64,000 nucleotides of DNA from Hyphomicrobiales bacterium (GCA_046290645.1 JBKAGZ010000004.1:196327-260326), one strand, 5' to 3'. Positions 3,572-19,583 are shown, counted from the first letter of the stretch. Numbers and translations are program-made. The notes: a model not told the origin generated them from the sequence alone.

Positions 3572-4833
3572 CCGCATCGATGTCCGTTACCGACAGCATC
3601 GAGGCTGATTATATCATCGAGACGGCGATAGACCCGCGCAAAGCTGCCGAGACCATGGCAGGCGAACAATCCTCTGGCACGTTTCTGCCCATTCCCGGTG
3701 AAACCGAAGAGCTGAAAGCCCGCTCCGCCGCCCGTGTTGAGCACTTGGAAGTTTTTCAGACCGTCGACACGCCATCCTTGCCCGGTGCAGCGGAGGGAGA
3801 AACCTATCAGCGCGCCCGAGTTACCTTGTCCTGGCCGCTGGGCAATGTTGGCCCGTCACTGCCCAACCTTATGGCCACCGTCAGCGGCAATCTGTTTGAG
3901 CTCAAGCCATTTTCCGGCCTGCGCGTTATGGACATTCGCATGCCGCAGGCTTTCGCAGATGCTTATCCAGGCCCGCAGTTCGGCATTGAGGGCACGCGCC
4001 ACTTAACTGGCGTCTCCAAAGGTCCGTTGATCGGTACAATCATCAAGCCAAGCGTCGGATTTTCCCCGCAAGAAACCGCTGAGCGCGTGGCGATTTTGGC
4101 GCAGGCCGGCATCGATTTCATCAAGGACGATGAGCTGCAAACCGATGGACCCTTTTGTCCGTTTGAAGAGCGCGTAAAAGCGGTCATGGCGGTGATCAAT
4201 GCGCACGCCGAGAAGACCGGCAAGAAAGTGATGTACGCCTTCAACCTTACAGGTGAGATCGATGAGATGCGCGCGCGGCACGATTTCGTGCGTGACCTGG
4301 GCGGCACCTGCGTCATGGCAAGCGTCAATTCGGTGGGGCTTGGCGGCATGATTGCGCTTAGCCGTCATACGCAACTGCCCATCCACGCGCATCGCAATGG
4401 CTGGGGCTACCTGTCTCGCCATCCCATGCTGGGTTGGTCGCATGTTGCCTGGTCGAAATTCTGGCGCCTGGCCGGTGCGGATCATCTGCATGTGAATGGG
4501 CTTCGCAACAAGTTTTGCGAACCAGATGCCAGCGTCATTCAATCAGCGCAGTCTTTGCTGACGCCGCTCTTTGACGACAAGCCGTGCCTGACCATGCCAG
4601 TGTTTTCCTCGGGTCAAAGCGCCATTCAGCCCGCTGAGACTTACCGGCGCATGCAAACCAGCGACCTTATCTACGCGGCAGGCGGCGGCATCGTCGGGCA
4701 CCCAGATGGCATTGAAGCCGGTGTACGCAGTCTGCGTGAGGCATGGGACGCTGCAGAGCAGGGCATCCCAGCGGCAGACTATGCCAAAGAGCATCCGGCC
4801 TTGGCCCGCGCCTTGGATGCCTACGCACAATGA
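3568..4833 (+). CDS. form-IV RuBisCO-like protein (RLP)
   Basis: RuBisCO large-subunit blocks GTIIKPSVGFSP, GIDFIKDDELQ (KDDE) and LPIHAHRNGWG. ATG 3568 makes an ATGA overlap with the upstream stop. No small-subunit or CBB genes are nearby. Confidence 0.9.
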   Translation: MTASMSVTDSIEADYIIETAIDPRKAAETMAGEQSSGTFLPIPGETEELKARSAARVEHLEVFQTVDTPSLPGAAEGETYQRARVTLSWPLGNVGPSLPNLMATVSGNLFELKPFSGLRVMDIRMPQAFADAYPGPQFGIEGTRHLTGVSKGPLIGTIIKPSVGFSPQETAERVAILAQAGIDFIKDDELQTDGPFCPFEERVKAVMAVINAHAEKTGKKVMYAFNLTGEIDEMRARHDFVRDLGGTCVMASVNSVGLGGMIALSRHTQLPIHAHRNGWGYLSRHPMLGWSHVAWSKFWRLAGADHLHVNGLRNKFCEPDASVIQSAQSLLTPLFDDKPCLTMPVFSSGQSAIQPAETYRRMQTSDLIYAAGGGIVGHPDGIEAGVRSLREAWDAAEQGIPAADYAKEHPALARALDAYAQ

Positions 4834-6185
4834 GCCAACCCAACGCGCCGTTGCTTGCCTGGTACGGCGATGATTTCACCGGCTCAGCAACTGTCATGGA
4901 GGAGTTTGCGTTTGCCGGCGTGGAAAGCGTTCTCTTCCTCGATATCCCTGATGCAGAGCAATTGGCGCGTTTTGCAAGCGCACGCACCACTGGCCTGGCG
5001 GGTACCAGCCGCGCCCACAGTCCGGACTGGATGGAACAGAACTTGCCCGCGCCCTTTGCATTTCTGCAACGGCTGAACGCGTCGCTTAACCTCTACAAGA
5101 TTTGCTCCACGCTTGATTCCTCGCCTGAGATTGGTTCCATCGGCAAGGCGCTGGCGATTGCCAGAAAGCAGTTTGGGCAGGGCGTGATCCCCCTCTTCCC
5201 CGCATCACCGAAGATGGGACGCTACCAGTGCTTTGGCACGCTTTTCGCCCGCGCTGATCAAACGGTCTATCGTCTGGACCGACACCCTGTCGTCTCTCAC
5301 CATCCCGTTACGCCGATGGATGAAGCTGATGTGGCCAGGCACATTGCGCGCCAAACCGATGAACCTATCGGATTGATCACACTGACAGACTTGCCGCGGG
5401 CTCAAGAGGTGTTCGCCACGCTGGCAAAGACCGGTGTTGGAATGGTTTCCATTGACGCTGTTGGCTCAGCCGATCTCATCGCCTGCGGGCAGCTTTTCGC
5501 CAGCCTGCCGCATGGCAGCTTGTTAGCAGGCTCCCAAGGCGTGGCGGAAGCGCTGGTGGAGTACTGGCGAACCATTGGCGAGAACGTTGGCGGCAGCGCC
5601 CAATTGCAAACGCCTGGCAGGGCAAACAAAATGGTGGGCCTGTCGGGGTCTTTGTCCCCAACGACACACAGTCAAATTGATCAAGCGCTGGCCGACGGTT
5701 TTGTTGGCGTGCCGCTTGATACCGAACGGTGCCTGGGCACTAAAAAGCAAGCGGCTGTTCGTCAAAGTGTCGAGGCGACACTCGCTATTTTGTCAGAGGG
5801 CAAATCGCCTTTGGTCTACTCCGCACGTGGCCGTGATGACCCGGCGGTAGCCAAACACCAGAACGCAGCAGAGCGGCTTGGCTTGACCAGCGAAGTTGCC
5901 AATCAGAAAATCGGTGAGGCACTGGGTGAGGTGTTAAGCCAGCTGGTCACTACGGGCGCGGTAACACGGGCAGCAATCGCAGGAGGCGACAGCTCTGGCT
6001 ACGCCCTGAAACGCCTTAACATGTTGGCTCTGACGGCATTGATGCCAACGGCTCCCGGCGCTGCGCTTTATCGTGCCCACCCAATGTCGAAGGAGGGTGC
6101 GACGCTCGAAGTGGCTCTAAAGGGCGGGCAGATGGGTTCGCGCACCTACTTTGCCGAAATTCGCGATGGAAATCAGCGCGCCTAG
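4830..6185 (+). CDS. DUF1537 / four-carbon acid-sugar kinase family protein
   Basis: N-terminus MSQPNAPLLAWYGDDFTGS, the hallmark DDFTG motif of this family. ATG 4830 forms an ATGA overlap with the RLP stop. The ORF-track extension from 4743 lies inside the RLP gene. Confidence 0.85.
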   Translation: MSQPNAPLLAWYGDDFTGSATVMEEFAFAGVESVLFLDIPDAEQLARFASARTTGLAGTSRAHSPDWMEQNLPAPFAFLQRLNASLNLYKICSTLDSSPEIGSIGKALAIARKQFGQGVIPLFPASPKMGRYQCFGTLFARADQTVYRLDRHPVVSHHPVTPMDEADVARHIARQTDEPIGLITLTDLPRAQEVFATLAKTGVGMVSIDAVGSADLIACGQLFASLPHGSLLAGSQGVAEALVEYWRTIGENVGGSAQLQTPGRANKMVGLSGSLSPTTHSQIDQALADGFVGVPLDTERCLGTKKQAAVRQSVEATLAILSEGKSPLVYSARGRDDPAVAKHQNAAERLGLTSEVANQKIGEALGEVLSQLVTTGAVTRAAIAGGDSSGYALKRLNMLALTALMPTAPGAALYRAHPMSKEGATLEVALKGGQMGSRTYFAEIRDGNQRA

Positions 6186-6201
6186 AAGGTGATGGAAAGC
6201 G

Positions 6202-6915
6202 CTAAAAAAGATCAAGCACGGATCTAAAGCGTTTGACGCTATCGGACACGTGATACGCGACCCGGCCAGGCGGTACAGGAACCTGGACGGCGCTTGCTTC
6301 GATCATGATCCCGAAACGCTTGGGGGCCATGTTGACCATAGATGGCAGCCGAAACCGCCGAGATTTGCCCCAGTCTCGCCAACTCTGTTCATCGGCATTA
6401 GGCAAAAAGCGCAAGGAATTATCCCACATGCGATCACGGATTGTATCGCTCTTGGCAACAAGTGCGTTGTAGATCGCAACCCGTTCCTTGCGATTGGAGG
6501 GCTCAAACGCTGCTGAAAAACAAAGGTCATGAGCCCCGATTTGAAGATCAAATTGCGGGCTGAGCTCCACCTCATCAAGGGTACGCCAAGCGATGTGGAC
6601 AAGGGCTTCTTCCCAAACGCGTCCAGGGTGCAGCCGCCCCAACCCTGGGTCATATTCAAGCGCGGCGTAGGGTTGGTTCAGAGCGGTGGAAAGATAGCGT
6701 GCGATATAGTCAGCCAACTCACGCGCTGAACTGGGAAGCAAGGCAACATCTCGTTCGAACCGACCACCAAACCGATGTCTTGGAGCCGACGCAGGGGCTC
6801 GCTTCAAAGCGCGCGCGATTGTCGAGAAGGTCTCAGACAACCGGTCACCACCGCGCTCATAAGGTGTTTGGAAAAAGGCAGCGTTACCCAGATCGTTTTG
6901 CGTGTGCTGCTCCAT
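6202..6915 (-). CDS. hypothetical cytoplasmic protein, co-transcribed with RND pump
   Basis: 237-aa ORF starting 6 nt after the RND permease stop. No TM segment, signal peptide or motif I recognise. Confidence 0.6.
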   Translation of the reverse strand: MEQHTQNDLGNAAFFQTPYERGGDRLSETFSTIARALKRAPASAPRHRFGGRFERDVALLPSSARELADYIARYLSTALNQPYAALEYDPGLGRLHPGRVWEEALVHIAWRTLDEVELSPQFDLQIGAHDLCFSAAFEPSNRKERVAIYNALVAKSDTIRDRMWDNSLRFLPNADEQSWRDWGKSRRFRLPSMVNMAPKRFGIMIEASAVQVPVPPGRVAYHVSDSVKRFRSVLDLF

Positions 6916-6921
6916 AATCGA

Positions 6922-9900
6922 TCACTCCGCTGCGATAGGTTGGGGGGTAAGGAGGCCACCGCCTTTACCTTCATCATTGTCGGCTTTGGCGGACTTGCGG
7001 GCAGCTTGCCTGGCAAGCTTGCGTTCGTCCTTTGCTTTGCGTTTGGCTGCCTGCCTCACGGCGTTCTCAGCCCGGCGCTCCTTGCGCAGATAGCTGTGGT
7101 AGAGCACCGGCACACCGACCAGGGTTAGAACTGAGGCGAACCCCAAACCGCCCATAATGCTAACTGCCATGGACGCAAAGAACGGATCGCTTAGCAGAGG
7201 GATCATGCCCAGTATGGTCGTGCCAGCTGCAAGCACCACCGGTCGCAAACGGCTGATCGACGCAGCAACAATCGCATCGCTTTGGAACGCATGATCCTTT
7301 TTCTGCTCATCGATTTCTTCAACCAAAACGATGCCGTTCTTGATCAGCATCCCTGACAGAGACAGCAGCCCCAGAAGCGCGGTGAAACTGAAAGGTAGCC
7401 CGGTGAAAAGCAGGCCAAGCGCCACGCCGTTCACGGCCATAGGAACGAGCGTCCAGATCACCGCCGTTTGACGCAGCTTTCCGAAAACCAAAATGGTCAG
7501 CAGAAGCATGGTGCCAAACGCCAGCGGCATTTGCCGACCCAGGCTTTGCTGCGCGGTGCTCGCGCTTTCAAATTCACCGCCCCACTCCATGCGGTAGCCA
7601 GGTGGGAGCTGCATGTCTTCGATAAGCGGGCGTACTTCGCTGAACACGCTTGGTGGCATGACGCCGGGCGGCGTGAAGGATTGCACAGAGATGGTCGGCA
7701 CGCGGTTGCGCCGCTCAATGACCGTGTCTCGGACTTCCACGTTGAAACCATCAACGACTTGTTCAAGCGGAACGAAACCCTCAGTCGCGCGAGAATACAC
7801 CGGTTGGTCGAGAACAAGGCCGTTGGCCGACTGCTCTTCACGTGGTGTGCGCACCAGGATTGGAATCTGACGTTCCCGCTCGCGGTAGACGCCAGCTTGA
7901 ACGCCATCCGTTGCCAGGGCGATGGCTTGGGAAACATCCTGGCGACCAATGCCGAGGGCCTGCGCGCGATCTGTTGCGAAGATGGGCTGGACGGCAAGTT
8001 CACGCTCACGCCAGTCGATGCGCTCGGTGAGCAGCAAATCGGTTTGTGTTTCAAAAATTAGCTGCGCTTCATCTGCCAAGGTGCGCAGCACATTTGGGTC
8101 GGGACCGGAGAACCGTACCTCGACATCAGCGCTAACTGGCGGACCGTAGATAATCTGCTCTGTTCGCACCTCAGCCCAAGGCAGGGTTTCAAAGCTGAAC
8201 GCATCCAAATCCGCACGCAGCTCTGGAATGGCCTCAAAACTCTCTGCGCGGATAATGATTTGACCAAAAGCAGGATCAGGGTTCGGTGGCGTATAGGTGA
8301 GGATGTAGCGTGAGAAAGGTCCGCCAGCGGTGGTCGTGAAAGCTCGCACATCCTCGCGCTGGGCAAGCCAGGCTTCCACTTTGACAAGGTCGCCTGCCGT
8401 CTCGTGGACAGATGTGCCCTGGGCTGCCTGGTAGTTCAGATAAAACAAAGGTGTATTGGCAGGCGGAAAGAACTGCTGGGTGACCATGCCGAATGCCCAC
8501 AAGCAGGCGACCGTGGTGCCAAGCAGCATCGTGATGACCAGCCAGCGGACGTAGAGCGCGCCGCGCACCACCTGGCCATAGAGGCGGAAAAACACCGTGT
8601 CATACGGATCTTTTCCCTCTTTCAGCCCACCAACCTTGAACACATAGTTGGCGAGCAGCGGTGTAACGGTAACAGCGATCAACCAGCTGAGCATGAGCGA
8701 GATGCCAATGACGGCAAACAGCGAGAACAGGAACTCGCCGGAGCTGTCCGGGCTCAAACCAATGCCCGCGAACGCCATGATGCCGATAACCGTGGCGCCA
8801 AGCAGAGGGAACTGCGTTTTACGAGCAACTTCGGAGGCAGCGTCCTTGGCTTTGCGGCCCCGGCGCATTTCCACCTGCATGCCTTCAGCAACAACAATTG
8901 CGTTGTCAACAAGCATGCCCATCGCGATGATCAGGGCGCCAAGGCTGATGCGTTCCACCTTCACATCAAAAATGTTCATGAAGAAGAAGGTGAAGCTCAC
9001 GGTCAGAAGCAGCGAAACGCCAACAACCAGCGCTGAGCGCCAACCCATGAAAACCGCCAGAACCAGGATCACGATGCCCACCGACATCATGAGGGAATTG
9101 AGGAAGTCGCCATTGGCTTCATCAACAACACGGTGCTGCTCATAAATGGGTGCAAGCTCGACACCAACTGGAAGAATGGTCTCAAGCTCGGCAAGCTTCT
9201 CTTCAACGCGCGCGCCCACCGCGACGATGTTTTCAGAGGTCAAACCAGCGATGGCGATCGTGAACGCTTCCTCCCCATTGTGGCGGATGATCTGGCCGGG
9301 CTGATCAACGCGGCTGCGATAGACGCGTGCGAAATCGGTGAGATTCAAAACCTCGCCATCAACACCAAAGCTCAGCGATCCAATCGATGAAACGCTATCG
9401 TCGGCTTCCGGCGCATCAATCTCAACTTGTCGCCCGCCGTTACTGGCTTCCCCGGTCGGGTTAAGGGCTGTTGAGCCACCGATGACAGAGAAGATCGTGG
9501 CCGGATCAACACCAAGATTGACGATGGACCGAGTGGACGGCTCAACGTAGATCGCCTCTTCCGGCAGGCCAAAAACCTCAACATTGGCCACACCGCCAAC
9601 AGTGAGGACTTCCCGGCGCAAGAACGTGGCAATTTCCCATATTTGCGCATCGCTGAAGCCTGTTGTCTTCACCGCATAATAGAGGCCGAAAACATCGCCG
9701 AAACTGTCATTGATGGTGGGGGGAAAGCTACCATCGGGAAGGACGGAGCGAGCATTGTCGATCCTGTCGCGCAAATCATCCCAAATCTGAGGCAGATCGC
9801 CGCCATCATAAATATCCTTCATCTCAACTTCGATAACCGAGACGCCAGGAATGTTGCGTGAGGAGATGATGTTCACCTCGCCCATCTGTTGAATTTCAGC

Positions 9901-12051: not shown

Positions 12052-12522
12052 TTAGCGGCGTGTGCGCTGCTCAAAGGTCTTTTTCGCTCGCTTGTGCGCA
12101 TCAGCGATCAGCGGAATGCAGGCCTGCCACGTTGCTTCAGTGGGTGAGAGAACCGCAATCCACCCCATCCAGGCATAGACCGGATGCGGCATGATCATGT
12201 CTGCTTGGGCGAAGTCCCAGGGCCCTTCGATGGTTGCGCCGTTGCCAGGTCGCTGCGGTGTCGCGCCAAACATCGAAACATAGGTTGACTTCTGAACGCC
12301 AATGTTGAGCCGCCAAATACCCTCTCGATCGAGATTTGAGCCGCGGTCATTCTCGCCATCCTTTTCTTTGACGGTGGCAAAGTAGGTGCCGCGCTTCAAA
12401 GCCTCTCCTGGATTGTAGAAGTAAGATGTTTCACCCCAGGCCTGCCTTGGGGTAACACCCGGCAATCGCGCCATGATATGATCATGGACGCTGCTGATTG
12501 TGATCCATGTGCTTTGCGACAT
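12052..12522 (-). CDS. DUF6194-like conserved protein
   Basis: Block WGETSYFYNPG...YFATVKEKDGENDRGSNLDREGIWRLNIGV...MPHPVYAWMGW matches my recollection of DUF6194. The start is ambiguous: 12522 overlaps the YafY gene by 41 nt, and ATG 12474 is the alternative. The stop is 2 nt from the convergent TetR stop. Confidence 0.6.
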   Translation of the reverse strand: MSQSTWITISSVHDHIMARLPGVTPRQAWGETSYFYNPGEALKRGTYFATVKEKDGENDRGSNLDREGIWRLNIGVQKSTYVSMFGATPQRPGNGATIEGPWDFAQADMIMPHPVYAWMGWIAVLSPTEATWQACIPLIADAHKRAKKTFEQRTRR

Positions 12523-13183
12523 GAAGGAGATAGTCCTCAATGGTTTTGCCGGGTTCGGTTGCGAAAACCTCTCCAGTAACGTCACACGCTGTCATCCGAT
12601 CAATGCGAAAAGCACGAAAACCCCGGCGCAGCTCACACCAGGCTGAACACGTCCATGCGCGCCCCCAGTAGTCGGTTTGAAGCGGGCGGATCACACGCTC
12701 ACTCAGTTTGTCGGATAAGCTTAGATAGGTAAGGTTGACCTTCAGCCTGTCCCGGATGGCGCGGCGCAAAAGCGGCATGTATTTGAGCCCGGCTCTAACA
12801 CGCTCAAACTCGTAAAGACCGAAACCCCAGCTATCGGGCGTCTTTCTTCGGTTGGGCGCATGACTTGCAATTTTCTCATGCAGCGTTCTAGCGGCGCCCT
12901 GAAGTTCGGTATCCGCCACTTCCTGCACAATCGACATCCCAAGGCTGAGAGCTTCAAGTTCACTGAGCGATAACGCCAGGGGCGGAAGAAAGATCGGCTC
13001 GCGTAGGAGATAGCCAACGCCCCGCTCGCCTTCGATTGGCACCCCGGACGCAACGAGCGTGCCGATGTCCCTGTAAATCGTGCGCTCAGAAACCTCCAAA
13101 GCCTCTGCCAAGTCGCGAGCCAGGTGAAGCCGTCCATCACGGACGATCTCCACAATCTCGCTGAGCCGCTCACTGCGCCTCAT
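12482..13183 (-). CDS. YafY family transcriptional regulator (HTH + WYL domain)
   Basis: N-terminal RRSERLSEIVEIV...ARDLAEALEVSERTIYRDI HTH followed by a WYL-type C-terminal region. Confidence 0.85.
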   Translation of the reverse strand: MRRSERLSEIVEIVRDGRLHLARDLAEALEVSERTIYRDIGTLVASGVPIEGERGVGYLLREPIFLPPLALSLSELEALSLGMSIVQEVADTELQGAARTLHEKIASHAPNRRKTPDSWGFGLYEFERVRAGLKYMPLLRRAIRDRLKVNLTYLSLSDKLSERVIRPLQTDYWGRAWTCSAWCELRRGFRAFRIDRMTACDVTGEVFATEPGKTIEDYLLHVAKHMDHNQQRP

Positions 13184-13192
13184 GTCTGTCGA

Positions 13193-13513
13193 TCAGTTCA
13201 CAGACACTTCAAGTTCGGTGTGATGCATTTTCACGGTTGAACCGTCGATTGCCGATAAAAAAGGACGGTTGGTTTCCACCGCCCCAAGCGCAGCAGCGGC
13301 ACCTTTAGCCGCTTCCATCGTCTCCCACTCGATATGCTCAATCCACGCACCGTCTTCGCCACAAGACAAGCGGCGAGAGATGAAGCCGGGCCGTGCGGTC
13401 ACAAAATCATTCATCGATTGGGCGGAGGCGGAAAATTGCTCCCGGCTTACGCCCTCATTGAGCTTGAAGGTTACGGTCTCAATAACGTGCTTGGTCATGG
13501 GCTTCATCTCCAC
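13193..13513 (-). CDS. small ABM/Dabb-fold (antibiotic biosynthesis monooxygenase-like) protein
   Basis: 106 aa, 9 nt upstream of the YafY gene. Typical ~100-aa ferredoxin-like pattern (ETVTFKL...W.S.EA). The start could be GTG 13513 or ATG 13507. Confidence 0.6.
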   Translation of the reverse strand: MEMKPMTKHVIETVTFKLNEGVSREQFSASAQSMNDFVTARPGFISRRLSCGEDGAWIEHIEWETMEAAKGAAAALGAVETNRPFLSAIDGSTVKMHHTELEVSVN

Positions 13514-13675
13514 TTCGAGTTCTTAGATGTGGAGATGGTAGATGAGCCCAACTGACAAAGCCTGTCAGTTGATCGCATCACCGAAGCGCCGGAGCCGCTT
13601 ACATCATTTGCGAGCACCTAAGATCGGAGGCGGCAAAGAACTGGACGTAATAAAGCGGCAGATCCTCAAACACCA

Positions 13676-13957
13676 CTATGTCTCATCTTCAGGCGTTTCA
13701 GAGGATTTTTGGCTTGATCGCGCGCCGTCAGAGTTTGGATGTGTGCCGCGTGGCCAACGCTTGGCCTTGCGCATACCGTGGATGGCTACGCCAAGGACCA
13801 AAACCGCGAGAACCAGCGGCACCGCATGAAAAGGTGACGCCAAGAAATGATCGACCAAAGATGATGGTGCCATTGCATCATGATGACCGGGATGCGCCGC
13901 TGCGATCTGCGTTGAAGCCAGCATCAAGAGTGCGGTTCTCGATATCAGAGTCTTCAC
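13676..13957 (-). CDS. small secreted/membrane-anchored His-bearing protein (signal peptide, HPGHHD, one TM)
   Basis: GTG 13957 is preceded by AAGGGA and lies 1 nt after the His-rich gene stop. Predicted signal peptide KTLISRTALLMLASTQIAAA, then HPGHHDAMAPSSLVDHFLASPFH, then TM segment VPLVLAVLVLGVAI. Last gene of the riboswitch operon. Confidence 0.55.
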   Translation of the reverse strand: MKTLISRTALLMLASTQIAAAHPGHHDAMAPSSLVDHFLASPFHAVPLVLAVLVLGVAIHGMRKAKRWPRGTHPNSDGARSSQKSSETPEDET

Positions 13958-13958
13958 G

Positions 13959-14456
13959 TTAGTTCCCTTCGGTTTGAGTGTGTTTGGCATCGAGTGCGTC
14001 GACCAAGTCGACATCGGCCCGTTCGGTCAGCGACACGTAAACGAATGTCATGGTCTCACGCTCTTCAACCATGGATGCTGGGTAAGGAAGGTAGACCAGG
14101 TCGCGCTGCGCAAACGCTGGCGATGCTGTGCCCAGCTGCCATTTGCTTTCAATCACGGTATCAACGAGGTGCATCTTTAGGCCATCGCTCCCCGTACGAC
14201 TGATCGGGATGCCGGCCAGCTCCATGAAGGAAGGTTTATCGTCTGCCTTTCGGAACCCCTCAATAAAGGATGCGGCCAAGGACTGCAGACGATGCTGACG
14301 CTCCTTTTTTGGATCAACATGCACATGGCTGTGCATGTGCTCGTGGTCATGCGTGTGATTGTGACCAACGCCATGGTCATGGCCATGATGATCATGCCCA
14401 TCGTGATCATGGCTGTGGGTGTGGGTGTGCTCGTTTTGATGGCGATGTTGGCTCAT
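13959..14456 (-). CDS. extremely His-rich protein, putative metallochaperone
   Basis: 20 of the first 46 residues are His (HTHTHSHDHDGHDHHGHDHGVGHNHTHDHEHMHSHVH), followed by a ~110-aa non-repetitive domain. The ATG overlaps the ureohydrolase stop (ATGA). Confidence 0.8.
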   Translation of the reverse strand: MSQHRHQNEHTHTHSHDHDGHDHHGHDHGVGHNHTHDHEHMHSHVHVDPKKERQHRLQSLAASFIEGFRKADDKPSFMELAGIPISRTGSDGLKMHLVDTVIESKWQLGTASPAFAQRDLVYLPYPASMVEERETMTFVYVSLTERADVDLVDALDAKHTQTEGN

Positions 14457-15715
14457 GGCTTCAAATCCCAGCCTTGAGAGTCAACATCCGGCCCCTGAGG
14501 AATGGAAACAGGTTTGTCGATGATCGCCTTGTGAGAGCCGAGCTTCCCGTGGCTCACAAGAGTGCCAAGCACATCAACGATGACCCGTGTGGCCAGCAGC
14601 GCCGTGATGTCTGAGGTGTCATAGGGCGGAGAAACCTCGACCACTTCGAGCCCGCATATGCCTTCCTTGGCAACCAGCGAGACAAGCTCTAGCGCTTCAC
14701 GTGGCAGAAACCCGCCGGGCTCCGGCCAACCGGTTCCAGGCACGAAGCCACAATCAACGCTGTCAATGTCGAATGAGATGTAGACTGCGTCCGCGTCTTT
14801 CCATGCAAGTTCAAGCGCACGTGCTGCGGTTTCCGCCAGTCCCATCTCTTCGATGTCACGCATTGTAAAAATGTTGGTGTTGCGCTTGCGCGCTTCCTCA
14901 ACGCCCTCGCGCGGCACCTGCCAACCACCAATGCCCACCTGCACCAGGTTGACTGCCGGCACATTGGCAAGGTCCGTCGCATGGAACCAGGGCGTGGTGT
15001 GCATGCGTTCATCCAAGTCTTTTTCCTGGATGTCGATATGCCGGTCGAAATGGACAATACCGATGCGTTTGGACGTACATTGGGCAATACCGCGCACGCA
15101 TGGGAAGCCAATCGAATGGTCACCGCCGATCATGATCGGCAGCGCACCTGAGGATGCAACATGGCTGACTGCACGGGAAACCTGATCAAAGGTTTTTTCG
15201 ATGTTGGCGGGAATTGTGAAAACATCCCCGACATCACACAGCGTCATCTGCTCGCGTAGATCGATACCCATTTCATAATTGTAAGGCGTGTAGAGCGCCG
15301 AGATCTTGCGCACGCCTTGCGGGCCAAAGCGTGTGCCTGGGCGATAGGTGGTGCCGCCATCAAAAGGCACACCAATGATGGCTGCATCATAATTACCAAC
15401 CAGAGTGGCGTCTTCAATGTAAGGTGCCTTCAAGAAGGTGTTGATGCCGGCATAATGGGGCAGCTCACCACGGGCGAATGTTGGTATCGTCTTGTCTTCC
15501 AGACTGTCGGAGCCTGTCAGTCCCATACGCAGCGCCCAGGCGCGTTCTTGCTGCCAGGCGGCGGACGGCAGCGTGCCTTCCTTCTGGGCAGACTTCCAGC
15601 CGCGCATCTGGAGCTTGTCAAAATCAGGGTGGTGCTGCCGCGCACGACGGCCCTTTTTGGCCCGGTCCGATTTCCGAGAGGCACGGCGTGGCCCCATTCC
15701 AAACAGTTCTTCCAT
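14453..15715 (-). CDS. arginase-fold ureohydrolase (agmatinase family), candidate guanidine hydrolase
   Basis: Family motifs IGGDHSIGFP, HFDRHID, SFDIDSVD and GLEVVEVSPPYD. There is a ~70-residue Arg/Lys-rich N-terminal extension relative to SpeB-type enzymes. GGAG lies 7 nt upstream of the ATG. The gene is in a guanidine-I riboswitch operon. Confidence 0.85.
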   Translation of the reverse strand: MEELFGMGPRRASRKSDRAKKGRRARQHHPDFDKLQMRGWKSAQKEGTLPSAAWQQERAWALRMGLTGSDSLEDKTIPTFARGELPHYAGINTFLKAPYIEDATLVGNYDAAIIGVPFDGGTTYRPGTRFGPQGVRKISALYTPYNYEMGIDLREQMTLCDVGDVFTIPANIEKTFDQVSRAVSHVASSGALPIMIGGDHSIGFPCVRGIAQCTSKRIGIVHFDRHIDIQEKDLDERMHTTPWFHATDLANVPAVNLVQVGIGGWQVPREGVEEARKRNTNIFTMRDIEEMGLAETAARALELAWKDADAVYISFDIDSVDCGFVPGTGWPEPGGFLPREALELVSLVAKEGICGLEVVEVSPPYDTSDITALLATRVIVDVLGTLVSHGKLGSHKAIIDKPVSIPQGPDVDSQGWDLKP

Positions 15716-15730
15716 GGTTGGCTCCAGTCG

Positions 15731-16543
15731 TCAGTTAGGGTGTGCTGCTGGGGTGCTGAAGAGCTGTTCTGGCTCGGGCACCGTTGCACCGGTCTTTTGA
15801 TCAAGTGGTAGGTCGTAAGTGATGGTCGCCCCGTAGCGCTCCGGCGCGTGGGGGTCATGGCGCGTCTTGTCAAAAACGAGCACGCGGCTTCCAAGCTTGA
15901 AGGCTTCGTTGATATCGTGGGTGACCATGAAGATGGTCATTTCGAGCTCTTGCCAGAGGTCGAGCAGCAACGCGTGCATGTCCAGCCGGATGCCCGGGTC
16001 GAGCGCGCCAAAAGGTTCATCAAGAAGCAGAACGCTAGGTCGCTTGAGAAGCGCTTGCGCAATCGCCAATCGCTGCTGCATGCCGCCCGAAAGTTGGGTT
16101 GGAAAGCGCTTGCGTGCGGCCGCCAACCCAATTTTCTCCAGCGTTTCGCTGACTGCCTCGCGCGCTTGGCGGCGCGTGGCACCGAATAGCCGCCCCGTCA
16201 CAAAACTGCGCTCAAATTCGCTCGCCAGTATCAGATTGTCTTCGACCGACAAATGCGGAAACACCGAATACCGCTGGAACACGATGCCGCGGTCGGGGGT
16301 TGGCTCACCTGGCAGTGGCTCGCCATCAAGCAGGATCTCACCGCGCGTCGGTGTTTCCTGCGACAACAGCATGCGCAGGAATGTTGATTTCCCACAGCCG
16401 GACGCACCAACAATCGTGCAAAACGCTCCTTGGTCCACATCAAGCGAAACACGCTCCAGCACAATCGTATCGCCATAAGACTTGCCAACATTGCGCACAG
16501 CAAGCTTCGGTAGGGCGCCAGTCTCTGCCGCAGCCTCACTCAT
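15731..16543 (-). CDS. ABC transporter ATP-binding protein (NitT/TauT family)
   Basis: Walker A GASGCGKST, signature LSGGMQQR, Walker B LLLDEPF. Overlaps the permease gene by 4 nt. Confidence 0.9.
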   Translation of the reverse strand: MSEAAAETGALPKLAVRNVGKSYGDTIVLERVSLDVDQGAFCTIVGASGCGKSTFLRMLLSQETPTRGEILLDGEPLPGEPTPDRGIVFQRYSVFPHLSVEDNLILASEFERSFVTGRLFGATRRQAREAVSETLEKIGLAAARKRFPTQLSGGMQQRLAIAQALLKRPSVLLLDEPFGALDPGIRLDMHALLLDLWQELEMTIFMVTHDINEAFKLGSRVLVFDKTRHDPHAPERYGATITYDLPLDQKTGATVPEPEQLFSTPAAHPN

Positions 16544-17361
16544 AAGCTTTCACCTTGCATATGGTGCCAAGGGAAAGCTCGGCGCGAGAGCATTAAAAGC
16601 AACTGATCCAAAATGTAGGCGAGCAGGGTGATCCACAGCACGTAAGGCAAGATGACATCCATCGCCAAAAACCGCCTGACCAGAAAGATGCGGTATCCAA
16701 GACCGGACGTTGATGCGATGGCTTCGGCGGAGATGAGGAAAATCCAGCCAGGCACAAGCCCAAGCCGGACCGCTGTAATCAGCTTGGGCAACACTTGAGG
16801 CAGAACCAGTCGTACGATCATGTGCCAGGTGTTGGCGCCCAATGTCTGGGCCTTGATAACCAGCTCTTTGGGGATGTCGATAACGGCCTGGGCGATGGAT
16901 CGGGTCATGACCGGTGCAGTGCCCAGCGTGACCAACATGACCTTCGACGTTTCGCCCAAGCCAACCATGATGAAAAGGATTGGCAGGATGGTGATCGGTG
17001 GGATCAGCGAAATCGCCGCGACATAGGGCGCAAGCATCGTGCGCGCATGTGGCAGAAACCCGATCAAAATGCCCAGCACCAGTGCAACGGTAGTTGCCAG
17101 GCCCACCCCAATGCCGAGCCGCCAAAGACTATCGAACGTGTCGACCCACAACAGAAGGTCCCCTGTTCGGCGATCTGGGACAAAAGCCATGCGCCAGAAT
17201 GTTGACCCCATCTGCCCCAGTGAAGGCAACAGCTTGTCGGCTGGGTTTTCCAGGCGGCGATAGTGGCTCGCCACCGCGTAGGCAATCACAGTCGCCGCAA
17301 AGGGAAGCGCGACGAGTGTGAAAGCCGCAACCCGGCCAGGGGATCGATTGATCAGGCGCAT
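16540..17361 (-). CDS. ABC transporter permease (NitT/TauT family)
   Basis: 273-aa polytopic membrane protein of the BPD-transport type, lying between the SBP and ATPase genes. Confidence 0.9.
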   Translation of the reverse strand: MRLINRSPGRVAAFTLVALPFAATVIAYAVASHYRRLENPADKLLPSLGQMGSTFWRMAFVPDRRTGDLLLWVDTFDSLWRLGIGVGLATTVALVLGILIGFLPHARTMLAPYVAAISLIPPITILPILFIMVGLGETSKVMLVTLGTAPVMTRSIAQAVIDIPKELVIKAQTLGANTWHMIVRLVLPQVLPKLITAVRLGLVPGWIFLISAEAIASTSGLGYRIFLVRRFLAMDVILPYVLWITLLAYILDQLLLMLSRRAFPWHHMQGESL

Positions 17362-17387
17362 GGTTGCCGACGTCCGATCAGCGCGGC

Positions 17388-18449
17388 TTACAGCGCGCCG
17401 TCAGCTGCCATCTGCATGTAGGTGGTGTCAAAGCGCAGCTGCACATTGTCAGGGTCACCAAAGATCGACCCGTCGGGGAAGCTCACACCGACGAACTCCG
17501 GTGATGGTGCACCTTCACCAAGAATACCGTTGTCAAACAGGAATTCAGCAACGAATTGCATCGTTGTTGAAAGCTCAGGCGCGCTTGTGAAGGCCACCGC
17601 ATCGGCAGGATCATAAAACATGGTGGTTGTATCAAGCTGGGCCTGATAGCCAGCCAAATCGGTGCCTGATGCGGATGCCAGCGCATCAAGCACATCCGTA
17701 TCACCTGCCGCCATAAGATCCATCATCTCGTACCAAGCGCCAACCAGCGCCTTGCCAAAGTCTGGATTGGCCGCAAGCGTGTCGGTGTTGACCATCATGA
17801 CGTCAATGATTTCGCCGGGGATGTTCGAGGAATCAAAAACCTGCGTGGAACCGGGCATGGCAGTGATTTCCGACAGGAGTGGGTTCCACGTCACAACCGA
17901 AGTAACATCGTCGGTGGCATAGGCCGCGATCATGTCAGCGTCCGATGTGTTGACGACGGTTAGGTCACGTTCGCTCAAACCAACGCCATCAAGCGCACGG
18001 GCCAGCAGATAGTGTGAGACCGACAGTTCGACGAGATTGACGTTTTGACCGGCGAGATCGTCAACGCTGTCACCATCTTTCAAGACAATACCATCATTGC
18101 CGTTTGAGAAATCACCGACGATCAGTGCTGTTGTGTCGACCCCACCGCCAGCGGGAATGGAAAGTGCGTCCATGTTCGTCATGGAACAGCCGTCGAATGC
18201 ACCGGCCGTGTATTGGTTGATAGATTCCACATAGTCGTTGATCTGAACGATCTCGACGTCAATGCCGTATTTGTCGGCCCATTTATCCATGATGCCGGAT
18301 GTTTGTAGGTAGCCCCATGGCATCCAACCCACATAGATCGACCAGCAAACGGAGAACTCGGTCCGTTCCTGCGCCGATGCCGCTTGGGGAGCGCCCAGCG
18401 TCAGCAGTGTTGCAGACACCAGTGCCGCGGTTTTGATTGTCTTGATCAT
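17388..18449 (-). CDS. ABC transporter substrate-binding protein (NMT1/NitT/TauT-like), candidate guanidine-binding
   Basis: Signal peptide ALVSATLLTLGAPQAASAQE. AAAGAGG Shine-Dalgarno lies upstream. First gene downstream of the guanidine-I riboswitch. Confidence 0.85.
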   Translation of the reverse strand: MIKTIKTAALVSATLLTLGAPQAASAQERTEFSVCWSIYVGWMPWGYLQTSGIMDKWADKYGIDVEIVQINDYVESINQYTAGAFDGCSMTNMDALSIPAGGGVDTTALIVGDFSNGNDGIVLKDGDSVDDLAGQNVNLVELSVSHYLLARALDGVGLSERDLTVVNTSDADMIAAYATDDVTSVVTWNPLLSEITAMPGSTQVFDSSNIPGEIIDVMMVNTDTLAANPDFGKALVGAWYEMMDLMAAGDTDVLDALASASGTDLAGYQAQLDTTTMFYDPADAVAFTSAPELSTTMQFVAEFLFDNGILGEGAPSPEFVGVSFPDGSIFGDPDNVQLRFDTTYMQMAADGAL

Positions 18450-18553
18450 TGATACGCGCCTCTTTGCTCATTCGGCGATGTGATCGCCATGGTGAAAAGA
18501 GGTTTGAGCACGCATACCGGGAGAAGGTTCGCGCGCGCAAACCAGTGCAGTTA

Positions 18554-18655
18554 TCTCCCGGGATTTTGTCCCGCCGTGTTCACCGACCTGATCGCCGGTT
18601 GGCATCTCTCGGACCTGCATCATTTGCTAATATCAAATGATCGGAACCCTAGACG
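18554..18655 (-). promoter_or_regulatory. guanidine-I (ykkC) riboswitch aptamer
   Basis: Minus-strand RNA: GUCUAGGGUUCCGAUCAUUUGAUAUUAGCAAAUGAUGCAGGUCCGAGAGAUGCCAACCGGCGAUCAGGUCGGUGAACACGGCGGGACAAAAUCCCGGGAGAUAAC. It contains the three hallmark blocks CUAGGGUUCCG, GGUCCGAGAG and ACACGGCGGGA..AAA..CCCGGGAGA, plus a perfect 8-bp hairpin AUCAUUUG/CAAAUGAU. Confidence 0.9.
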
Positions 18656-18678
18656 CCCGCTGCACATACGCCTTGCTA

Positions 18679-18694
18679 TTCAACATTCGTGCCA
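18679..18694 (-). promoter_or_regulatory. candidate sigma-54 (-24/-12) promoter TGGCACGAATGTTGAA
   Basis: Minus-strand TGGCACG-N4-TTGA lies ~27 nt upstream of the riboswitch CUAGGG block. It matches the TGGCACG-N4-TTGC consensus except for the last base of the -12 element. Confidence 0.3.
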
Positions 18695-19583
18695 GTTGAC
18701 CAGAAGCCCGCCTGGACCGGACCTTGGACTTGATAGAGTTTGGTATAGGCGGCTTTGGCGCCTCTCTTTTGGGCGTTTGTGCAGGCATGCCCTTTTATTA
18801 TGCAATCCATGTAAAGCGCATCGCCGGGCTTTGGGCGCCCATCAGGTGGACCCAAGTGATAGGTCAGAACTGCCGGTGTGCGTGCATGATGTGATTGCAG
18901 CAACGCATTGGAGACGTTGGCCCACTCATGCGCGGTTGGCGCAGCCAGCCGCATGACCAATGCCTGTAACCATTCAGTACGATGAGGTCCGGTCGTCGGA
19001 AGGTCGCAAGAGCCAGCCGTTTCTCCGGCTGATTTGCCAGAGCCGGACTCGTGCAGCGAAAGCCATTACTTCTTATACAACAATTTGGAAAACATGAGGG
19101 GCTCGCCGCCACCGCTATAAGCGGTTTCTGTTTCAATCCGTAGATCGAAACGAGTTCATAATGCCACGGCCATGCGCGGTTGATTCACCGAAAGAGTATT
19201 TGGGGGTCAAACGCACCCCGATTGATCGTTGAGCCCCGCTGCCCACGCCTTAGGTTTCGACTGCAGAACCTACTTGGCAAATCCAGGCAGCGCTGCAGAA
19301 CAGGACCGGGTTGGGCGAAAAGCAGACCTTGACAGCGGCGCAACCTCATTTCCTGGAAAATCTGTATATCAGCTCTAAGCGGCATGCTGCAGCAGAGGCC
19401 TCATCCAGGTGGGGAACGGTCATCCAGTTTTTGTTTTTGCCAGAGCCAAAAAAGCTAAAAGGCCAGTCGCCCGAACAAGCCTGTTTCTGGCTATGCCAAC
19501 TGCGGCAGTCCGACCATGATCATCATTGAACTGTAAGCAAATCGTCATGGCCATGTCATGGAAACGCTCCACTGATAGCAGCG

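Follow-up and report, generated by a model that had tools for sequence, protein, structure and literature searches.

A predicted guanidine uptake and hydrolysis operon with two putative nickel accessory genes in a marine alphaproteobacterium

The window analyzed here is a 64,000-nt stretch of DNA from a Hyphomicrobiales bacterium (GCA_046290645.1, JBKAGZ010000004.1:196327-260326), and its subject is a set of six minus-strand genes that follow a guanidine-I riboswitch. From the riboswitch onward, the genes encode a substrate-binding protein (SBP), a permease and an ATPase belonging to an ATP-binding cassette (ABC) importer, an arginase-family enzyme orthologous to the guanidine hydrolase GdmH, a His-rich protein (referred to below as the partner) and a small membrane protein (Table 1). 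The original prediction for this DNA had proposed a riboswitch-led, six-gene order on the minus strand, and every element that it named is present. It had also stated that the genes are separated by 26 nt or less, or overlap. The spacings read from the sequence agree: a gap of 26 nt between the SBP and permease genes, a 4-nt overlap between permease and ATPase, a 15-nt gap between ATPase and enzyme, a 4-nt overlap (ATGA) between the enzyme and the His-rich gene, and a single nucleotide between the latter and the small gene. We conclude that the locus is probably a guanidine-inducible nitrogen-scavenging operon that includes a putative nickel accessory pair. The pathway, riboswitch and importer are already known, and the window is a further member of this group that differs in gene order and in being arranged as a single riboswitch-led unit.

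Table 1. Positions of the features discussed, counted from the first nucleotide of the window; for the last seven rows, positions are those of the related loci named
Feature	Position	Strand	Length or remark
Guanidine-I riboswitch aptamer (ykkC class, RF00442)	18553-18663	minus	Rfam cmscan
Expression platform and leader	18450-18552	minus	minimum free energy fold, comparison of related leaders
SBP gene	17388-18449	minus	353 aa
Permease gene	16540-17361	minus	273 aa
ABC ATPase gene	15731-16543	minus	270 aa
Arginase-family enzyme (GdmH orthologue) gene	14453-15715	minus	420 aa
His-rich protein (partner) gene	13959-14456	minus	165 aa
Small membrane protein gene	13676-13957	minus	93 aa, GTG start
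106-aa open reading frame without family match	13193-13513	minus	next to operon
WYL/HTH_11 regulator	12482-13183	minus	after the 106-aa reading frame
Dioxygenase insert, locus L009	5300-6352		
Dioxygenase insert, locus L026	4599-6399		
Dioxygenase insert, locus L028	4523-6335		
Dioxygenase insert, locus L033	4529-6335		
Dioxygenase insert, locus L038	5300-6352		
Dioxygenase insert, locus L040	~4580-6285		frame looks disrupted
Dioxygenase insert, locus L087	2383-4169		

For comparison we used a related set of 80 loci, obtained by scanning one genome per species with the window enzyme. These loci span Hoeflea, Oricola, Roseibium/Labrenzia, Stappia, Thalassospira, Bauldia, Kiloniellaceae, Pelagibius and many Rhodobacterales, and the closest are from Hoeflea, with enzyme identities of 93% and 91%. 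The order SBP (where the locus reaches so far), permease, ATPase, GdmH and His-rich gene is kept in 80 of 80 loci, and because the same order recurs in every one of them the grouping is more than a chance arrangement. A riboswitch core lies 84–359 nt 5′ of the SBP gene in 73 of the loci (84–162 nt in all but one), with the SBP gene the first to follow it in each case; six of the remaining seven loci are cut off upstream. RF00442 matches at the Rfam gathering score were found in five further loci. Taking some 90 related loci into account, carriers of the operon are marine and soil Alphaproteobacteria that include Hoeflea, Roseibium, Thalassospira, roseobacters and Sinorhizobium fredii. The window host is itself a marine alphaproteobacterium, with Hoeflea as its closest relative.

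The aptamer is readily identified. The cmscan match to RF00442 scores 76.1 bits (gathering score 63, E = 9.6e-12), covers model positions 1–107 of 107 and is the sole Rfam match above gathering score across the entire window. It extends 8 nt past the end coordinate given for it in the original prediction, and 103 nt separate it from the SBP start codon on the same strand. Helices P1, P2 and P3 covary in an alignment of 15 related leaders, where 20 of the 38 predicted pairs show compensatory changes. Guanidine-dependent switching at this aptamer is predicted. A mechanical open reading frame (ORF) of 158 aa on the plus strand (18480-18956) was considered as a gene and rejected, since its apparent tblastn conservation in relatives is the antisense translation of the aptamer.

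How the aptamer would control the downstream genes is suggested by the leader. This segment contains a CUCCCGG sequence complementary to the aptamer 3′ CCGGGAG, together with a GC-rich hairpin, and in the minimum free energy fold of the window leader (z = −2.9) the Shine–Dalgarno sequence AAAGAGG is paired with CCUCUUU. Of 69 related leaders, 39 have the CTCCCGG element at a fixed distance of 30–35 nt past the aptamer, as compared with 1.1% of random 150-nt windows. A U-tract (at least four T) is present in just 12 of the 69, and neither the leader nor the operon interior of the window contains a canonical intrinsic terminator above shuffled expectation. Given both observations, we do not assert a transcription-termination mechanism. 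Because a conserved alternative pairing and a paired Shine–Dalgarno sequence occur where no canonical terminator is seen, a ligand-dependent rearrangement of the leader is likely, and translational or Rho-dependent control appears more likely than intrinsic termination.

The three genes that follow the leader have the features of a GimABC-type importer. The SBP matches the TIGR03427 equivalog (ABC_peri_uca) at 549.6 bits (cut-off 333.9) as well as Pfam NMT1 and NMT1_2; it has a signal peptide and is of the periplasmic, GimA-like type. TIGR03427 proteins accompany guanidine and ‘urea’ carboxylase operons. The permease matches PF00528 at 67.6 bits, and its best NCBIfam matches are TauC- and SsuC-like models, below their cut-offs. 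The ATPase matches PF00005 at 116 bits. These two proteins are GimB-like and GimC-like, respectively, and the positions of their genes are conserved in the related loci. The SBP equivalog score and the adjacent TauC/SsuC-like permease and ATPase uphold the earlier assignment of a NitT/TauT-type ABC importer to the guanidine-I riboswitch. In Synechocystis GimA (Sll1080), the guanidinium pocket is formed by W59, W62, F205, D135 and D233, and the GimABC binding protein binds guanidine with a dissociation constant of 97 nM (PMC12704784). The window SBP contains a GWMPWG motif with the W-x-x-W spacing of the Sll1080 pocket, a possible likeness at the level of the motif. The SBP is predicted to bind guanidine.

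The enzyme has an arginase fold (PF00491, 262.7 bits), and its relationship to the guanidinases is close. phmmer gives E = 1.4e-161 to PDB entries 7ESR/7OI1 (Synechocystis Sll1077/GdmH) and 3e-157 to 9FEK (Nitrospira inopinata guanidinase); the next structure is a proclavaminate amidinohydrolase at 1.3e-50, with agmatinases weaker yet. Guanidinases are defined by six metal ligands plus Thr105, His222, Trp313 and Glu344, of which the Thr and Trp mark specificity for guanidine (PMC11410670). In the N. inopinata enzyme the metal ligands are H182, D207, H209, D211, D299 and D301, and the specificity residues T105 and W313 correspond to T97 and W305 of the Synechocystis protein. The window counterparts of the ligands are H200, D224, H226, D228, D316 and D318, located in identical motifs, and those of the remaining residues are T122/T123 (in GGTTYR), H239, W330 (in GTGWPEPGG) and E360. 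Ten of the 10 published metal-ligand and guanidine-specificity residues are conserved, and the enzyme is a GdmH orthologue, predicted to act as a Ni-dependent guanidine hydrolase of the arginase family. The original prediction had proposed that an arginase-fold hydrolase converts guanidine to urea and ammonium in place of the carboxylase route; GdmH orthology favors that assignment, but the route itself was already known.

It is also possible to ask whether the operon acts on a substituted guanidine such as methylguanidine, agmatine, guanidinobutyrate or taurocyamine. The best NCBIfam names for the enzyme are indeed agmatinase models, and RefSeq labels an orthologue ‘agmatinase family protein’, but these models score below their cut-offs (207.5 versus 302 and 168.6 versus 174.3), and the GdmH match of E = 1e-161 compares with 1e-50 or weaker for agmatinase and guanidino-acid hydrolase structures. 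The guanidine-specificity Thr and Trp are present as well. The specificity of the window SBP is predicted from homology, and some related operons contain genes resembling MgdH/MgdL, which act in methylguanidine demethylation. MgdH and MgdL yield free guanidine, however; finding them in relatives therefore favors guanidine as what the hydrolase acts on, and both are absent from the window. Finally, selectivity against methylguanidine has been reported for guanidine-I aptamers (PMC12508155). We consider action on a substituted guanidine very improbable. A preference of the SBP and the enzyme for such a compound had been named at the outset as a case that would refute the guanidine assignment, and it is made unlikely by the Thr and Trp residues, the level of the TIGR03427 match and the reported rejection of methylguanidine by aptamers of this class.

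In the mechanism that we favor, free guanidine would bind the 5′ aptamer and turn on the downstream genes, most likely by freeing the ribosome-binding site. The GimABC-type importer, composed of the SBP, permease and ATPase, would take in guanidine at low external concentration, and the di-nickel GdmH orthologue would cleave it to urea and ammonium; breakdown of the urea would fall to a urease encoded outside the window. This core of sensing, import and hydrolysis is supported by close homology and by published experiments on orthologues. Two points weigh against it: the assignments of ligand binding and transport, of enzyme activity and of metal content are all by homology, and the window yielded no urease gene. 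The latter result, which extends to hyp, nik and ure accessory genes, comes from a crude motif scan and not from a full Pfam search of the 53 ORFs.

The two genes distal to the enzyme are less easily interpreted. The partner is predicted to be cytoplasmic, with a variable His-rich N-terminus followed by a folded domain of ~110 aa. It has no sequence match in Pfam, NCBIfam or the PDB, the best PDB profile search result being E = 0.62. A word-indexed search identified 155 close clusters, all labeled ‘hypothetical protein’, and an exhaustive profile search identified 154 representatives at 50% clustering, including a more divergent second subfamily. Homology between the two is clear from an hhalign probability of 99.65%, and a search with the divergent one brings the family to at least 1,860 clusters. 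Positions H32, N33, H40, F64, G92, L97, P113, P124, P126, R133 and F138 (window numbering) are invariant family-wide and G31 is nearly so; a G-H-N...H motif is fixed within the otherwise variable His-rich N-terminus. In a second AlphaFold2 (AF2) model, based on 55 sequences, the domain has a predicted local distance difference test score above 90 and consists of two helices, a β-sheet with long hairpins and a C-terminal helix. When two AF2 models were compared with the PDB by Foldseek, E was 0.09 and 0.15 at best and template modeling scores were 0.22 or lower, with domain-swapped cystatins and COMMD proteins as the top weak fold matches. Identity with HypA, HypB, UreE, UreG, SlyD or CooJ was considered and rejected, as no Pfam or NCBIfam matches were obtained even at E = 10 for the C-terminal 119 aa of the window protein or at E = 1 for the distant subfamily.

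At every readable flank the partner gene is located directly 3′ of the GdmH orthologue. This is the case for 80 of 80 genome loci, where the partner was found by profile search in 79 and by tblastn in the 80th, a truncated locus, and for 10 more distant loci, which comprise eight contigs obtained by exact-protein look-up and two plasmid records. On the eight contigs, the partner gene lies 2–20 nt past the arginase-family gene. On the plasmid of Limimaricola variabilis there is an overlap between the two genes as annotated, and the RefSeq labels read ‘putative urea ABC transporter substrate-binding protein’, ‘agmatinase family protein’ and, twice, ‘hypothetical protein’, the second time for a 54-aa product. 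On the unannotated Sinorhizobium fredii SMH12 megaplasmid, a tblastn match to the partner lies just downstream of the match to GdmH. In the distant loci GdmH identity is 71–78% by tblastn, while that of the partner drops to ~30%. Two of the partner loci also bear a full-length HupE/UreJ gene. In Chthonobacter albigriseus this gene directly follows that of the partner. In Ancylobacter lacus (locus L082, 5957-9549), NikR, HupE/UreJ, a guanidine-I riboswitch (7456-7563), GdmH and the partner follow one another in this order; the riboswitch unit there consists of gdmH and the partner only, with no ABC importer at the locus. Neither the window nor the 80 genome loci show a gene or motif like HypA, HypB or UreG, and the HypB/UreG-type (ENVGNL-type) motif is likewise missing from six of the distant loci, which brings the number of loci examined for it first to 86.

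What might such a protein do? Activation of GdmH, and of the metformin hydrolases related to it, requires nickel chaperones. Because of this need, the lack of any known chaperone nearby, the strict coupling of the partner to GdmH over a wide range, its conserved His motifs and the occurrence of NikR and HupE/UreJ in the same clusters, we infer that the partner is a nickel metallochaperone or store for GdmH, used in place of GhaA/GhaB. In this capacity the translationally coupled partner would act in the cytoplasm and without a GTPase, docking on GdmH through its C-terminal domain and handing over Ni2+ held by the GHN...H motif and the His-rich N-terminus, and it would thereby substitute for the cyanobacterial GhaA/GhaB maturases. 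GTPase-independent supply of nickel to GdmH is the most likely role of both accessory proteins. A part in metallocentre assembly had been proposed for the two His-bearing genes from the start, and by association this is plausible; they are not homologues of GhaA/GhaB, and their families are uncharacterized. We rejected their identification as GhaA and GhaB, there being no HypA/HypB-like match, no P-loop and no Pfam or NCBIfam model for either. Note also the strongly basic extension at the N-terminus of the GdmH orthologue (within residues 1–43; RRASRKSDRAKKGRRARQHH), which exceeds that of the Synechocystis enzyme by ~24 residues and is partly conserved in close relatives. The partner, acidic and His-rich, could dock there.

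Several observations weigh against a nickel-delivery role. The partner has no nucleotide-binding motif, recognizable fold or conserved Cys, and its structured domain is without an invariant His. His-rich tails are found also in proteins that are not chaperones. Both the partner family and the HypB/UreG motif are absent from 80 of 80 metagenome loci (L093-L172) with guanidinases 82–97% identical to the N. inopinata enzyme, and, in agreement with this, comammox guanidinases are reported to work with no nickel chaperone gene nearby, indicating that a dedicated chaperone is not universally required.

Some of the same evidence bears on whether the partner is instead a structural or regulatory subunit of GdmH, or a general, Hpn-like nickel buffer or store protecting the cell, as opposed to a nickel-insertion chaperone. 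Its strict adjacency to gdmH and the translational coupling would fit subunits made in a fixed ratio, and heteromeric ureohydrolases are known, metformin hydrolase needing an inactive second subunit; the Synechocystis and N. inopinata GdmH crystals, on the other hand, contain a homo-hexamer without an extra subunit. The long β-hairpins of the AF2 monomer and its weak matches to swapped or intertwined oligomers (cystatin dimers, COMMD) suggest an obligate oligomer or complex. The folded domain lacks an invariant metal-ligand residue, but the invariant G-H-N...H and the His-rich N-terminus point to metal handling, NikR and HupE/UreJ cluster with the gdmH-partner pair in two lineages, and no other nickel maturase is encoded nearby. 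We regard a subunit or buffer role as unlikely and favor the chaperone or store assignment given above.

The last gene of the operon was recovered mechanically as an ORF at 13676-14014, with an ATG start at 14014; a GTG at 13957 gives a product of 93 aa. The GTG is almost certainly the real start, because the public 93-aa product (P0275) and homologues begin there. The signal peptide of the window protein ends in AAA immediately before H, so that the mature form is predicted to begin with HPGHH; an SPFH motif, a single transmembrane helix and a basic tail are also present. The family shares this design: a basic N-terminus and a hydrophobic, signal-like core lead to an invariant Ala-His (A21 and H22) at an A-x-A cleavage-type site, with a second His at +4 (H26, conserved in at least 90%), and the sequence continues, frequently by way of SPFH, into one hydrophobic helix with a basic tail. 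Cleavage would fall between A-x-A and the His and leave a mature N-terminus, H-x-x-x-H, that would face the periplasm. In 40 of 79 loci the partner gene is followed by an ORF built in this way, mostly with a 4-nt overlap with the partner stop; the design holds across Rhizobiaceae, Stappiaceae and Paracoccaceae, and RefSeq calls the 54-aa equivalent on the Limimaricola plasmid as a gene.

Relationships of the small protein to known families are faint. Sub-threshold Pfam matches include DUF6732 in 10 of 36 members, HupE_UreJ in 3 of 36, and also TrbC. For DUF6732 (PF20506) the window protein scores 8.1 bits (E = 3.1, gathering score 27) and the best member reaches E = 0.0022; the relation may be a distant one, and it provides no functional information. 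Assignment to HupE/UreJ (PF04955) was rejected: the protein has 93 aa, a single helix and no HPxxGxDH, as compared with ~190 aa and several helices in HupE/UreJ, and the three matching members do so at E = 0.006 or weaker. Pairwise BLASTP against HupE/UreJ gives E = 5e-4, the real HupE/UreJ proteins of related loci share the ‘signal peptide-AHPGH’ start (e.g. ‘...AFAHPGHGE’), and some public source annotations (Joint Genome Institute) name the homologues ‘HupE’. We interpret this as a resemblance with shared genomic position and not as demonstrated homology. The small protein may be a periplasm-facing helper in nickel capture or uptake. Once cleaved, it would expose its N-terminal His residues (H-x-x-x-H) to the periplasm and aid nickel capture or import, serving as an optional, minimal counterpart of the HupE/UreJ protein found at the same position in some relatives.

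This proposal has points against it, and they lend some weight to the view that the 93-aa ORF is unrelated to nickel, being either a generic small membrane peptide or unexpressed. The gene is absent from 39 of 79 related loci, yet where it occurs its position is conserved, the 4-nt overlap is usual and the design is kept across distant families. Mean column identity in the family is 27%, with the A-H and one further His conserved, the Pfam matches are below gathering score and extend to unrelated families of small membrane proteins, TrbC among them, and hhalign gives a probability of 12.9% to HupE/UreJ, aligning the signal peptide and AHPGH alone. A single-helix protein is, moreover, not an obvious transporter. 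Against these may be set the independent calling of the ORF as a gene by public pipelines and the presence of a true HupE/UreJ in the same slot in Chthonobacter. We judge an ORF without any connection to nickel to be rather unlikely, and retain the assignment as a candidate helper in nickel acquisition.

The closest characterized parallel is in Synechocystis, for which the guanidine-I riboswitch, gdmH, nickel maturases and GimABC importer were published in 2022–2025 (PMC12704784, PMC12186494). GdmH hydrolyzes guanidine to urea and ammonium, depends on Ni2+ and is activated by the HypA/HypB-like proteins GhaA and GhaB; in Synechocystis sp. PCC 6803 the genes are gdmH (sll1077), ghaA/ghaB (sll1078/79) and gimABC (sll1080-82). 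The two systems have in common a guanidine-I riboswitch, orthologous GdmH enzymes, a NitT/TauT-type importer with a periplasmic binding protein, accessory genes (for nickel supply) right after gdmH, and the logic of sensing, import and hydrolysis. Gene order is reversed, however. The importer comes first in the window and everything lies behind one riboswitch, whereas gdmH-ghaAB and gimABC of Synechocystis form two units with NtcA promoters, and an NtcA system is not expected in an alphaproteobacterium. The accessory genes also differ, with HypA/HypB homologues in Synechocystis as compared with a GTPase-less His-rich protein and a 93-aa membrane protein in the window.

In comammox Nitrospira, as in the window, a guanidine-I riboswitch controls uptake and a GdmH-type guanidinase (the 9FEK match noted above), and no HypA/HypB is encoded nearby. 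Uptake in Nitrospira is by an APC-family secondary permease in contrast to the ABC system of the window, no nickel-related gene has been reported there, and the Nitrospira-type loci lack the partner family, as described. A looser parallel is provided by the metformin hydrolase operons (with HypA/HypB and HupE/UreJ) and by UreE, HypB and Hpn, where a His-rich cytoplasmic protein likewise occurs beside a nickel enzyme; the partner differs from HypA, HypB, UreE, UreG and SlyD in having no sequence or fold similarity to them and no GTPase partner. HupE/UreJ-type sets resemble the window in placing a membrane protein with a ‘signal peptide-AH(P)GH’ start beside a nickel enzyme, and relatives of the window operon carry full-length HupE/UreJ and NikR. 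Carboxylase operons, for example in Pseudomonas syringae and in Vreelandella boliviensis, which combine a riboswitch and an ABC importer with Gca, CgdAB and allophanate hydrolase, share the riboswitch class, a TIGR03427-type importer and the purpose of using guanidine nitrogen. Their route proceeds by ATP-dependent carboxylation, whereas hydrolysis as predicted for the window is ATP-free, and none of the carboxylase-route genes is present in the operon. At least three accessory arrangements seem to exist for GdmH.

These comparisons place the novelty of the locus in its accessory pair, which seems not to be described in Pfam 2025, NCBIfam 2026, PDB 2026, RefSeq annotation and a full-text search, the 2022 Nature paper reporting the discovery of GdmH being outside that coverage. 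A full-text search for His-rich proteins associated with guanidinase returned nothing relevant. Tentatively, and as the less favored side of an uneven choice, the partner can be viewed as an unrecognized GTPase-independent nickel-insertion factor for arginase-fold enzymes, with an apparently new fold and with the 93-aa HupE/UreJ-like protein as its periplasmic feeder; the pair would then constitute a second metallation route beside GhaAB. If this is true, the partner would be a nickel-insertion factor that is widespread in Alphaproteobacteria, given the size of its family. The question matters for several reasons. Guanidine has only lately been seen as a widespread nitrogen source, and very few arginase-fold enzymes depend on nickel as GdmH does; how enzymes of this kind acquire nickel, and not manganese, is an open question. 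A 2024 comammox study calls the nickel-loading mechanism unclear where HypA/HypB-like genes are missing. An unannotated His-rich protein that always accompanies GdmH in these operons is a testable candidate for an alternative nickel-delivery route, and thousands of proteins now labeled ‘hypothetical protein’ or ‘agmatinase family protein’ could be annotated better.

The limits of the operon were set by comparison with relatives. The flanking minus-strand genes were considered as further members and rejected, as they are not conserved beside the operon in the 80 related loci, and for this reason we define the unit as extending from the riboswitch to the small gene. The 106-aa ORF and the WYL/HTH_11 regulator (Table 1) are probably unrelated neighbors. 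A perfect 9-bp hairpin, CAACTGACA GGCTT TGTCAGTTG, is located at 13549-13571 on the minus strand, ~105 nt past the stop codon of the small gene, and lacks a T-tract. It may mark the 3′ end of the operon or belong to the upstream region of the next gene.

Two contigs labeled as metagenome-assembled genomes of other lineages, Flavobacteriaceae (L030) and Anaerolineae (L044), bear an operon of the alphaproteobacterial type with GdmH proteins 87% and 81% identical, respectively, to that of the window, which suggests mis-binned contigs or lateral transfer.

Lastly, in some Roseibium, Hoeflea and Chthonobacter GdmH operons the SBP and permease genes are separated by an inserted gene for a 2-oxoglutarate/Fe(II) dioxygenase of ~350–370 aa (Table 1). 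A hypothetical protein of ~240 aa comes next in L026, L028, L033, L040 and L087, and in L009 and L038 the dioxygenase alone fits the available space. The dioxygenase and ~240-aa protein look like the methylguanidine hydroxylase/lyase pair MgdH/MgdL, which has so far been reported with the carboxylase pathway (PMC12508155).

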